NCBI RefSeq assembly: GCF_029227855.1
Contig: NZ_CP074356.1
DNA length: 64,000 bases
Direction: 5' to 3' (one strand)
DNA from: Escherichia coli
GTDB lineage: Bacteria > Pseudomonadota > Gammaproteobacteria > Enterobacterales > Enterobacteriaceae
Below, in pieces: positions 40,618-54,263 of the stretch. Below the pieces are notes generated by a model. That model was not told where the DNA came from and did not search any database. It worked only from the letters and a program-made list of their open reading frames with translations. Position 1 is the stretch's first letter; each line of letters starts with the position of its first letter. Made by a program: the position numbers and the translations under genes.

Positions 40618-41103
40618 TCATATTTTTAATATAGCCCCATGAGCTATAGGATCAAAACCTTCTAACCATGAGGTGTTTTTATCGAATAATGCACCTGTTA
40701 TATTTATATCGCCATATCTATCACATAATAAATTAGCGCCACATAAGTCAGCACCAGAAAAATTTGAATCTTTAACGTCTGCATTGCAAAAGGTTGAATT
40801 AGTTAATATAGCACCCTCAAAGTTTGCACCTATTGACCTTGAATTACTAAAGTCACTTCCAGTGAAATCTGAGTTATTAAGAATAGCGTTCATCAGAGCC
40901 GCATTGCGAAAGACAGCATTTCTAGTTGATGTATGTTGAATCATTACATTTCTTAAATGGGAATTTTCAAATTTCGCCCCATCAAGACAATAACCATTGA
41001 GGATGGCACGATGTAGATCCATCCCGCTAAAATCATATCCAGCAAGAGTGGTACTATCTATATCAAGAAATTTATTGGTTATTAAAAACGCGATTCTTAT
41101 CAT
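40618..41103 (-). CDS. Pentapeptide-repeat protein, putative immunity protein for the rhs2 C-terminal toxin
   Basis: 161 aa with about 20 tandem pentapeptide repeats ([25 protein letters not shown] ... [10 protein letters not shown]); start overlaps the rhs2 stop as ATGA. Confidence 0.6.
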
Positions 41104-52154: not shown

Positions 52155-54263
52155 TCAGTACTCTCTCATATCCGGCGTATCCTGCTTTTCATCAGGGGTC
52201 TTCGGTGGGGATTTCGAGGCTGCACAGTTCCAGTTAATCAACAGTGAGTCACCATTAACCTGCTCCTTACCCTGCAAATGAATTTTTGTGCCGTTGAGAA
52301 AAATTTGTCCGTCCTTAGTCAGCACCAGCCTTGCCTTACCACAGCAGAGTTCCAGATGCTCACCGGCGGAGTAAATCGCGGTCTGCCCGGTATCATCCTT
52401 TTTCGTTTTACCAACGGTGAAGGTAACGTTATTTCCGACTTTGACGTCATAACCCAGCCCGACCATCAACGACTTATGCAAACCGATCTGCGAGGACTGC
52501 ATCAGGGCCACCGAGGTGTTCATAATGCCACCTACCGTCGTCTGATACGCCACGCCCACGGTCAGCGCACGAACAAGTCCAATCGTTTCCACCTGAACAG
52601 AGCCCACTTTAATGATCTGGTTACTGCCCACCGTCTCTATCTGGTTAACGCCCACCGTCTGTATCTGATTGTTGGTAACCGCAATCACCTGATTGTTGCC
52701 GATGGTCTCAGCATGGCTGTTTATCACATCCGTGGTTCGGTTATTCAGCACCTCAGTGTTCATGTTCTTCTGCGCGTGGATGTAGACCTGTTCTTTCCCT
52801 GTCGCATCGTCAAACTTCAGTTCATTAAACCCGCTGCCCTTATAGGTTTTCGAACGAATGGTCATCTGCGTCTTTGTTCCCGGCAGGCTGCCGGGGGTGC
52901 GGTTTTCCTGGTGGTAGGTACGCCCCATAATAATCGGCTGGTCCGGATCGCCGTTGAGGAAGTCCACAATGACTTCCTGACCCACACGCGGTATCGCCAG
53001 GTTGCCAAAGCCGGTGCCTGCCCACGCCTGTGCCACACGGATCCAGCATGAACTGTCCTGGTTTGACGGGTTATAGCGGTCCCAGTTAAATTTCACCCGC
53101 ACGCGGCCATGTTCATCACAGAAGATTTCTTCTCCTGCCGGTCCCGTCACGACGGCGCTCTGCGGGCCGTCCACCAGCGGTTTCAGCAACGGCTGTGGCC
53201 GCCATGTTCTGTCTGCCGGTATTACCGCAAAGTGGTTATTCAGCGTGGTACCTGAACCCCTGCGTCCCGGCACCGCCTGCGGCTGCTCGCCGTGCAGTTC
53301 ACTTGCCACCACCTGCCATTCCCGGTTCAGGTTCGCCTGCGGATGCCCCGTCAGCGCAATTCGCCGTCCCGGCCATATCTCCGGCGAACGGCTTGTTCCG
53401 CGCGCCACTTCTGCGTTGTTTCGCCAGCCATCCATCTGCCAGCAGGCAAAGTTCTGCCCGTGGGCACCCTTGAAACGTCCGGGGTAGTCATACACTTCAT
53501 ACTGTGTGCGCTGGTAATCCTGGTGCTGGCCTTCCTGATCAAAACGCCCTGCCCAGCCGGGTCGTTTAAAGGTGTAGTCTTTGGTCACCACGGAAGATGG
53601 GCGGATTTGTGCGCTGTAGCGGAACTGGCTGATGCATAGGGTGCTCACCTCGGTACGGGTGTTCGGATTCCAGGGGATCTCAAAGGACTCCGGCAGATAA
53701 CGCACGGTGTCGCACAGGACCAGGCTCTGGTCGGTACTTTTTTGCGCGTGCTCCTCATAAAAGAAGATGCCTTCCTCCGCCGCCATCCGGCACAGGAAAT
53801 CGTAATCGGTTTCGCCGTACTGGACACAAAACTCACGGGAAGGATGCGGCTCGCTGAACAGCGGACTCCACTCGGTCACCCCGTTTTCTTTCAGGATCGT
53901 CGCGAGTATGCTTTCGATGTCCTCATTCTGGAAGATACGGAAGTTCTGGCGCAGCCCTGTGCGCCACAGCGGTGGGCACACCTTCATGCTGTACAGCATC
54001 TGGTTTTTGTCGTTCTCCCCCAGTTCAAACCAGGTCACCACACCTTTCACCCGGCGCTGTACGTCATCGCCCTGCCATACCGTCAGGTAGGCCATTTTGT
54101 CCAGCACCTGCGCAAATTCAAGGGAGAGAAACTGCTGGCTGACCAGAGAGAGATCGAGGGAAAAGAGCGAAGAGAGTGACTGGTTCAGATGAAAGGAGAC
54201 CACCGCAAACGCGTCCGGTGGCAGGCCGTCCACTTCCAGCGTGAAACGTAATCCGGTTGACAT
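52155..54263 (-). CDS. vgrG: Type VI secretion spike protein VgrG (Rhs-associated)
   Basis: About 702 aa from MSTGLRFTLEVDG with GGAGG RBS; gp27/gp5-like sequence with C-terminal beta-helical VxVG-type repeats; directly upstream of rhs1. Confidence 0.85.
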   Translation of the reverse strand: MSTGLRFTLEVDGLPPDAFAVVSFHLNQSLSSLFSLDLSLVSQQFLSLEFAQVLDKMAYLTVWQGDDVQRRVKGVVTWFELGENDKNQMLYSMKVCPPLWRTGLRQNFRIFQNEDIESILATILKENGVTEWSPLFSEPHPSREFCVQYGETDYDFLCRMAAEEGIFFYEEHAQKSTDQSLVLCDTVRYLPESFEIPWNPNTRTEVSTLCISQFRYSAQIRPSSVVTKDYTFKRPGWAGRFDQEGQHQDYQRTQYEVYDYPGRFKGAHGQNFACWQMDGWRNNAEVARGTSRSPEIWPGRRIALTGHPQANLNREWQVVASELHGEQPQAVPGRRGSGTTLNNHFAVIPADRTWRPQPLLKPLVDGPQSAVVTGPAGEEIFCDEHGRVRVKFNWDRYNPSNQDSSCWIRVAQAWAGTGFGNLAIPRVGQEVIVDFLNGDPDQPIIMGRTYHQENRTPGSLPGTKTQMTIRSKTYKGSGFNELKFDDATGKEQVYIHAQKNMNTEVLNNRTTDVINSHAETIGNNQVIAVTNNQIQTVGVNQIETVGSNQIIKVGSVQVETIGLVRALTVGVAYQTTVGGIMNTSVALMQSSQIGLHKSLMVGLGYDVKVGNNVTFTVGKTKKDDTGQTAIYSAGEHLELCCGKARLVLTKDGQIFLNGTKIHLQGKEQVNGDSLLINWNCAASKSPPKTPDEKQDTPDMREY

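Follow-up and report, generated by a model that had tools for sequence, protein, structure and literature searches.

Variable vgrG-Rhs islands, with swappable toxin tips, immunity genes and H-repeat/ISAs1 scars, are textbook Escherichia coli biology. Here we describe one such island on E. coli contig NZ_CP074356.1. The window analyzed, a stretch of 64,000 nucleotides (nt), carries between positions 40618 and 54263 a vgrG gene and two rhs genes, rhs1 and rhs2, each followed by a small open reading frame (ORF). Loci of this kind and both toxin classes have been described before, and every gene already has a RefSeq annotation. The best explanation of the whole, which we consider likely, is an expanded and partly decayed rhsE locus with one live effector, Rhs2, in which rhs1 is dead and its immunity gene has been retained.

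The closest described systems are the Rhs-CT effectors of the E. coli type VI secretion system (T6SS), as summarized from Ma et al. 2017 in PMC6730261. The locus shares with them a PAAR-like N-terminus, a YD shell, a variable C-terminal toxin and an immunity gene directly downstream. By the classes set out there, rhs1 is vgrG-linked and rhs2 is neighborless, akin to the Rhs of T6SS clusters; neighborless full-length Rhs proteins are a recognized E. coli class there, kin to the T6SS-cluster Rhs. The present locus differs in that no eagR/DUF1795 gene lies in the 66-nt gap between vgrG and rhs1, and in that rhs1 is frameshifted. Two relevant tip classes come from Zhang et al. 2012 (PMC3482391): Tox-WTIP, predicted to be pore-forming, with two membrane helices and the motifs RxxR and Wx[ST]IP on Rhs proteins, and Tox-ParB, a class defined computationally whose function is predicted. 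Pectobacterium Prhs2 has likewise been predicted to be a 'DNase with ParB motif' (10.1101/2025.05.08.652813). In Stenotrophomonas rhizophila, Tse6 is an Rhs tip of unknown function whose immunity protein, Tsi6a, structurally resembles a pentapeptide-repeat protein; its orthologs occur on Rhs, HINT, TPS and other carriers in Actinomycetes, Planctomycetes and Proteobacteria and are rare, with 37 strains (bioRxiv 10.64898/2026.07.13.738213).

The flanking genes place the island at the rhsE locus, between yncH and pptA. At the same site K-12 has a 2-kb rhsE pseudogene together with ydcD, yncI and ydcC, in agreement with the original prediction, made from the sequence alone, that only a truncated rhsE remnant would be found there. 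The two loci have in common the Rhs core, a tip with a small gene, and ISAs1/H-repeat copies. Whereas K-12 has no vgrG and only the rhsE remnant, the window adds an intact vgrG, a near-complete rhs1, a complete rhs2 and a segment with a sulfatase-GGDEF gene pair.

All features of the island lie on the minus strand, and the ORF list gives the order vgrG, rhs1, a small ORF, ISAs1 copies, rhs2 and a 161-amino-acid ORF, as had been predicted. The prediction that both rhs genes are full length holds for rhs2, a 1403-amino-acid ORF, but fails for rhs1, in which a 1-nt deletion leads to a stop at 48525. The shared YD shell is present in both, as is the PxxxxDPLGL boundary, and both Rhs C-termini match Rhs_assc_core (TIGR03696). 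The two tips are unrelated, again as predicted: the best BLASTP alignment, with an E value of 0.028 over 28 amino acids, is not significant, and we judged this weak local likeness to be chance. The two downstream ORFs are also unrelated to each other, and an ATGA overlap is present at both rhs stops (41100-41103 for rhs2 and 47929-47932 for rhs1), although RefSeq starts the rhs1 partner elsewhere, at 47902.

The rhs2 gene (41100..45311) is a single uninterrupted ORF that runs through the boundary into the tip; it starts at an ATG of its own, with 420 nt of upstream region before it. Its product corresponds exactly to protein WP_275877216.1, its Pfam domains comprise DUF6531, 12 RHS repeats and RHS, and no vgrG adjoins it. 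The whole tip past DPLGL, 143 residues long, is encoded at 41103..41531, and the toxin domain, the last 100 amino acids, which end in DWGNR, at 41103..41402.

Domain searches of the tips and downstream ORFs, which the original prediction had proposed, gave a family match for the rhs1 tip (Tox-WTIP) and for the rhs2 partner (pentapeptide repeats), and no family match for the rhs2 tip or the rhs1 partner. For the rhs2 tip, with no sequence match in Pfam, NCBIfam, PADLOC or PDB, only structure prediction and a fold search were informative. A full HMMER scan of 1.8 billion representatives at E ≤ 1e-3 returned 329 relatives, which are representatives at 50% identity. The homology lies at the C-terminus in all relatives listed, in proteins of 60 to 2400 amino acids, and the carriers include Rhs, CdiA/FhaB, Hint and SpvB/TcdB proteins, always with the toxin domain C-terminal. 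In a 46-sequence alignment of the last ~100 residues, Q23, S27, G57 and H59 are invariant and R60, D96 and W97 near-invariant. The conserved motifs of the family are (D/E)GNHR and DWGN, with R60 conserved in at least 90%. AlphaFold2 (AF2) run on this alignment gave a predicted local distance difference test (pLDDT) score of 96.5 and a predicted template modeling (pTM) score of 0.89, and on this model we confidently assign the last 100 residues to the ParB/sulfiredoxin (Srx) fold. Pfam, including ParBc and its relatives, gave no significant match in the query or in any of the 46 members, the best being ddrB-ParB at E 0.32. In hhalign, GNHR was set on GCHR of human sulfiredoxin at low probability, with the Srx sequence entered by hand.

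The rhs2 tip fits the Tox-ParB class (PMC3482391) and the Pectobacterium 'DNase with ParB motif' tips. Common to all is a ParB/Srx-fold C-terminal toxin with a conserved Arg, on Rhs, filamentous-hemagglutinin and other carriers in many phyla. The differences are twofold. Pfam ParBc matches none of the 46 members here, the likeness to the alignment in PMC3482391 being by description only, and the immunity families listed there are Imm20, Imm27 and Imm-SuFu, whereas here the partner is a pentapeptide protein; the word 'pentapeptide' does not occur in the available part of the text of PMC3482391. A literature search returned no experimental study on ParB-like Rhs toxins, pentapeptide immunity or T6SS DNA mimics. 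The tip may damage its target using the conserved GNHR phosphate-binding motif. Our best guess at its activity, held at somewhat less than even confidence, is nucleoside triphosphate (NTP)-dependent nicking or cleavage of DNA; the second and less probable guess is phosphotransfer to a non-DNA target.

Directly downstream, the 161-amino-acid ORF (40618..41103; RefSeq WP_000618048.1) overlaps the rhs2 stop and encodes a pentapeptide-repeat protein, the presumed cognate immunity protein, with matches to Pfam Pentapeptide (E 1.8e-8) and Pentapeptide_4 (E 1.8e-6). Its NCBIfam matches all fall below cut-off: Alr5209 at 53.5 bits (cut-off 125), HetL at 47.4 (260), MfpA at 37.2 (360) and Qnr at 32.3 (240). 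In an AF2 model of the toxin fused to this protein, the pentapeptide part shows a regular pattern of one strand per five residues. Across the family, the pentapeptide partners have invariant LHRA and TxWPxGF motifs and are uniformly acidic, with a median isoelectric point (pI) of 4.8.

To survey the genes neighboring the toxin domain, one genome per species was scanned, giving 79 loci. A homologous pentapeptide gene lies directly downstream of the toxin in 57 of them, at distances of -13 to +105 nt. The pair is found in Proteobacteria, Bacteroidota, Firmicutes, Myxococcota, Planctomycetota, Actinomycetota and Verrucomicrobia, with genera including Neisseria, Aggregatibacter, Pseudomonas, Achromobacter, Budvicia, Chryseobacterium, Flavobacterium, Paenibacillus, Cytobacillus, Sorangium and Pirellula, plus actinobacterial and verrucomicrobial metagenome-assembled genomes. 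Among metagenomic homologs, whose carriers include an SpvB/TcdB-type protein of 2388 amino acids, five of five contigs hold a homologous pentapeptide gene of ~150-163 amino acids overlapping the toxin stop or at most 12 nt from it. Toxin and partner co-diverge (Mantel r 0.72, a value reached by none of 2000 permutations). The conserved coupling, the co-divergence and the uniform acidity together provide strong comparative evidence that the pentapeptide protein is the cognate immunity protein of the rhs2 tip. Sibling cells would be protected by binding of the pentapeptide β-helix to the toxin, plausibly through mimicry of DNA.

The scan also revealed a divergent Bacteroidota toxin subgroup of eleven loci with a C-terminal extension of ~28 amino acids and no pentapeptide gene downstream. 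This subgroup presumably uses a different immunity protein.

What the tip acts on bears directly on how its partner should be understood. In one alternative, the tip is an NTP-dependent phosphotransferase, kinase-like and comparable to sulfiredoxin, SerK and SbnI, that modifies a protein or metabolite, and the partner is a repeat-scaffold inhibitor without any DNA-mimic meaning. We regard this as a real but minority possibility. The comparison with sulfiredoxin is limited by the replacement of the catalytic Cys of Srx in the toxin family, where N is commonest and H, V, Y or T occur in others. Most polymorphic toxins attack nucleic acids, and the usual prediction for ParB tips is DNase activity (PMC3482391; 10.1101/2025.05.08.652813). 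An invariably acidic pentapeptide partner, moreover, is what a DNA-binding surface would select.

Pentapeptide-repeat proteins also offer a precedent for protection without toxin binding: Qnr, MfpA, AlbG and McbG protect DNA gyrase. The 161-amino-acid protein shares with Qnr, MfpA, AlbG and McbG the right-handed β-helix repeat and an acidic character, and it has weak MfpA, Qnr and HetL matches; it differs in being shorter, in falling far below the cut-offs, in having its own LHRA/TxWPxGF motifs and in being coupled to a secreted toxin. On this precedent, the pentapeptide protein would shield the cellular target of the toxin, and the tip would poison or modify a DNA-processing enzyme. The MfpA and Qnr models are matched at E values of 1e-9 to 1e-8, the protein is acidic like DNA mimics, and the fused-chain model shows no clear complex, all of which would be in keeping with target protection. 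The partners, however, co-diverge with the toxins while their mean identity is only ~37%, which better fits a partner-specific binder; the pentapeptide gene is always translationally coupled to the toxin; and the immunity proteins of polymorphic toxins in PMC3482391 are all treated as toxin neutralizers. We therefore consider target protection unlikely and prefer a cognate immunity protein that binds the toxin. The Tse6-Tsi6a pair resembles the present one in combining an Rhs tip with a pentapeptide-like immunity protein, a comparison made by description only and without sequences. The authors of that work mention no ParB fold, and their 37 strains compare with 329 representatives here; no Stenotrophomonas or M. 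chelonae match appeared among our toxin-family searches.

We next consider the delivery of Rhs2. The closest RefSeq genome, E. coli JNEC-KY178 (NZ_AP045174), is 99.6% identical over the locus. The check for a T6SS core cluster suggested by the original prediction was made in this closest complete genome: a full core is present at tRNA-Asp (aspV), at 4,001,330-4,029,759 of NZ_AP045174.1, with tssA, B, C, E, F, G, H, J, K and M, icmH/dotU, two hcp genes and its own vgrG. The same cluster also holds a 1499-amino-acid Rhs followed by a small ORF, and an ISAs1 pseudogene. At its variable N-terminal residues, Rhs2 is identical to this T6SS-cluster Rhs and differs from rhs1. Because the N-terminal variant matches the cluster Rhs and not rhs1, the comparison suggests that Rhs2 rides the T6SS-cluster VgrG rather than the adjacent one, and loading onto the shared adjacent VgrG, one of two roles originally proposed for rhs2, appears doubtful. 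Rhs2 would sit on a VgrG spike, probably that of the T6SS core cluster, attached by its PAAR-like N-terminus, and would be fired into neighboring cells, where the tip would be freed by cleavage at DPLGL.

The other role originally proposed, that of a stored alternative tip, fares no better. In its strict form, rhs2 would be a silent reserve copy, unexpressed or undelivered, and would serve the vgrG-linked rhs1 only as a substrate for recombination. Neither a vgrG nor a chaperone gene adjoins rhs2, IS fragments lie on its flanks, and tip swapping by recombination at Rhs loci is an established idea (PMC3150448). Yet the gene is complete, with its own start and upstream region; two of the genomes examined, those of strains 144 and GMF065, lack vgrG-rhs1 but have rhs2 annotated as intact, again without an adjoining vgrG; the tip-plus-immunity module occurs in 143 of 5426 complete E. 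coli genomes; and both the neighborless class described in PMC6730261 and the N-terminal match to the T6SS-cluster Rhs speak for a gene in use. We consider a silent reserve very unlikely, and a working effector remains our reading of rhs2.

The state of rhs1 is different. Its span, 47929..52088, measures 4160 nt, which is no multiple of three, and the ORF list splits it into 48525..52088, ending in ...EYDEWGTC*, and 47929..48540, where the tip is read in a different frame. The 5' ORF encodes 1187 amino acids with the PAAR-like N-terminus and the YD shell, and matches NCBIfam RHS_core (NF041261) at 2551.9 bits (cut-off 2000) over model positions 1-1189 of 1261; it ends at a premature TGA (48525-48527) upstream of the DPLGL boundary. 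Alignment to rhs2 and to the rhs genes of strains UK_Dog_Liverpool and 1190 maps the lesion to TGGGG[C/A]AACC, where one base, C or A, is missing between 48535 and 48534, so that the site at 48531..48540 reads GTGGGG^AACC. The intact form of the rhs1 site is TGGGGCAACC and the deleted, pseudogene form is TGGGGAACC; the same site reads GGGGAAACC in rhs2 and GGGGCAACC in the UK_Dog_Liverpool and 1190 genes. The shell ORF stops three codons past the deletion, and the 3' end (47929..48534), with the end of the core (DPIGL…DPLGL) and the 127-amino-acid tip, is left off-frame over 202 codons. The rhs1 product as encoded is without the DPLGL boundary and without the toxin.

JNEC-KY178 carries the identical rhs1 deletion, with the PGAP label 'frameshifted'. 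Its assembly differs from the window elsewhere, since its rhs2 measures 4211 nt against 4212 in the window and is annotated as frameshifted, and it can thus be taken as an independent record; as assembled, it would have no intact Rhs at the rhsE locus. In about 46 other complete genomes the rhs1 tip is joined to the core in one piece, and 24 of the 24 listed matches among them have one extra base. The lost base lies between GGGG and AA, outside any long homopolymer. We rejected programmed -1 frameshifting as a way around the lesion, since the sequence there, G GGA ACC, lacks the X XXY YYZ pattern of a slippery heptamer. From these comparisons, rhs1 is very probably a genuine pseudogene in this lineage; it would formerly have been a vgrG-linked Rhs effector with a Tox-WTIP-type tip, lost by a one-base deletion.

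The 'two-effector arsenal' of the original prediction is thus not borne out by the sequence as it stands. That both Rhs proteins are functional and two toxins are fired, the frameshift being a sequencing or assembly error or being bypassed by -1 slippage at G GGA ACC, is highly doubtful: a single base is involved, the remainder of rhs1, its tip and its immunity gene are intact, the ~46 genomes hold the intact allele, and a Gly-tRNA in the P site could shift its pairing from GGA to GGG, but the same deletion in a second, independent assembly, its position away from long homopolymers and the lack of a slippery heptamer (a downstream stimulator was neither sought nor seen) all argue against it.

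Although off-frame, the rhs1 tip can be tentatively assigned to a class. Its C-terminal 40 amino acids match Tox-WTIP (Pfam PF15654, E 4.8e-13, model positions 40-79 of 79), and it carries both an RxxR motif (RVIR) and a Wx[ST]IP motif (WWSIP). Homologs with PF15654 are found in E. coli, Salmonella and Hafnia, and the tip has no sequence relative in the PDB. Its sequence is like that of Tox-WTIP toxins, which are predicted to insert into membranes. The tip shares the C-terminal half of the model together with both motifs, whereas ~85 residues between DPLGL and the match are unassigned. In contrast to the two membrane helices of Tox-WTIP, it has one clearly hydrophobic stretch (KD19 1.32, the only window above 1.3), and its immunity candidate is soluble. 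This presumed immunity gene (47558..47902; WP_001279013.1) is intact and encodes 114 amino acids from the RefSeq ATG at 47902, with GGAG 8 nt upstream; the alternative ATG at 47932, which overlaps the rhs1 stop, would give 124 amino acids. The exact sequence occurs on 835 contigs, and it has no Pfam, NCBIfam or PADLOC match.

Several points weigh against our overall reading. For the PAAR-like N-terminus originally ascribed to both proteins, a literal P-A-A-R stands at residues 5-8 of each, with only ~48 amino acids before DUF6531, but residues 1-1200 of Rhs2 give no Pfam PAAR_motif match at E ≤ 10. The genome in which the T6SS core was found is that of a close relative, with 99.6% identity over the locus, and not the window's own; the 64-kb window holds no T6SS core genes. 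The one-base difference in rhs1 could in principle be an assembly error common to related pipelines. With regard to the partner, the pentapeptide gene is missing in 22 of the 79 loci, including truncated contigs and the divergent Bacteroidota subgroup. The fused AF2 model, a single chain of toxin-(GGGGS)6-pentapeptide with a paired 31-row alignment, reached a pTM of 0.62, a value that speaks neither for nor against a confident complex, and came without predicted aligned error output. Finally, the toxin domains are not consistently basic (pI 4.5-9.9), and the argument for DNA binding is weakened because the charge of the toxin is variable.

Comparison with other strains provides insight into the history of the locus. 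The full tandem arrangement is present in only one of the 5426 complete genomes. Strain UK_Dog_Liverpool carries vgrG together with an rhs of different tip, plus the immunity gene of that tip, and has the WTIP tip as a decayed orphan; in strain 1190 the WTIP tip sits on an rhs, accompanied by vgrG, the immunity gene and ISAs1. Strains 144 and GMF065 carry only ISAs1, rhs2 and the pentapeptide gene, with a truncated yncG and no vgrG or rhs1; in these two genomes the truncated yncG adjoins the ISAs1 element. Between rhs1 and rhs2 in the window lie an intact ISAs1-family (H-repeat, ydcC-like) transposase gene (46075..47211; NF033564, 404.7 bits) and, abutting it, a 3' fragment of a second, different ISAs1 element (45732..46097; NF033564 model positions 246-314 of 314). 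The intact, ISEc1-like gene overlaps the fragment, which is the 3' third of its gene, by 23 nt, and the two proteins are about half identical by eye, a value that was not computed. The same junction is found in KE55 and GMF065, both without vgrG-rhs1 and with yncG truncated, and in strain 144 the complete second ISAs1 element occupies this position. Because the junction is shared by KE55 and GMF065, which lack vgrG-rhs1, the tandem state is probably ancestral for the rhs2 lineage, and we infer that most rhs2 descendants lost vgrG-rhs1 by an ISAs1-adjacent deletion.

At the other end of the island, a 5' fragment of an ISAs1 transposase gene, annotated as a pseudogene (39481..40032; NF033564 model positions 1-142 of 314), bounds the rhs2 module. 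Between pptA and this fragment, on the plus strand at 36287..39407, lie an alkyl/aryl-sulfatase gene and a GGDEF-domain gene. The pair is present in all three of the rhs2-carrying genomes examined (JNEC-KY178, 144 and GMF065) and missing from K-12, UK_Dog_Liverpool and strain 1190; because of this pattern across the six genomes, it is probably part of one accessory segment with rhs2. A match to Rfam group-II-D1D4-2 (RF01999; 40442..40550, minus strand), at 48 bits against a gathering score of 36, falls in the stretch that separates the pentapeptide gene from the ISAs1 fragment. With neither a D5/D6 match nor a reverse-transcriptase ORF nearby, it resembles a lone piece of a group II intron.

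The vgrG gene (52155..54263) is intact and encodes 702 amino acids that match TIGR03361 (625.9 bits, model positions 1-512 of 513) and TIGR01646 (443.8 bits); the same span is annotated in NZ_AP045174 as a T6SS Vgr family protein. Beyond the island, the genes are dosCP, ddp, fdn, narUZYWV, yddE, nhoA, yddH and pptA on one side, and yncH, yncG, ansP, yncE and pqqU on the other. Two further elements, both expected for this E. coli region, are an STnc490 Hfq-binding RNA adjoining IS200C tnpA (14661..14784, minus strand) and a SECIS element within fdnG (18796..18854, minus strand).

Taken as a whole, the strain would have one working effector at its rhsE locus and would remain immune to a toxin of another type. 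Rhs turnover is clearly caught in progress here: a single base has killed an effector whose immunity gene persists. The remaining effector has a ParB/Srx-fold toxin without a Pfam model that is mostly coupled to a pentapeptide gene across phyla and secretion systems, a pairing that hints at a DNA-mimic style of immunity. We put forward, tentatively and as a rather unlikely proposal, that the rhs2 tip represents a large uncurated family of ParB/Srx-fold secreted toxins (329 clusters on Rhs, CdiA/FhaB, Hint and Tc-type carriers, in Gram-negative and Gram-positive bacteria) with a dedicated pentapeptide DNA-mimic immunity. If this is true, and the β-helix mimics the DNA substrate or guards the target as Qnr does gyrase, it would represent a distinct immunity principle for polymorphic toxins and would offer the first experimentally tractable handle on the action of ParB-fold toxins.

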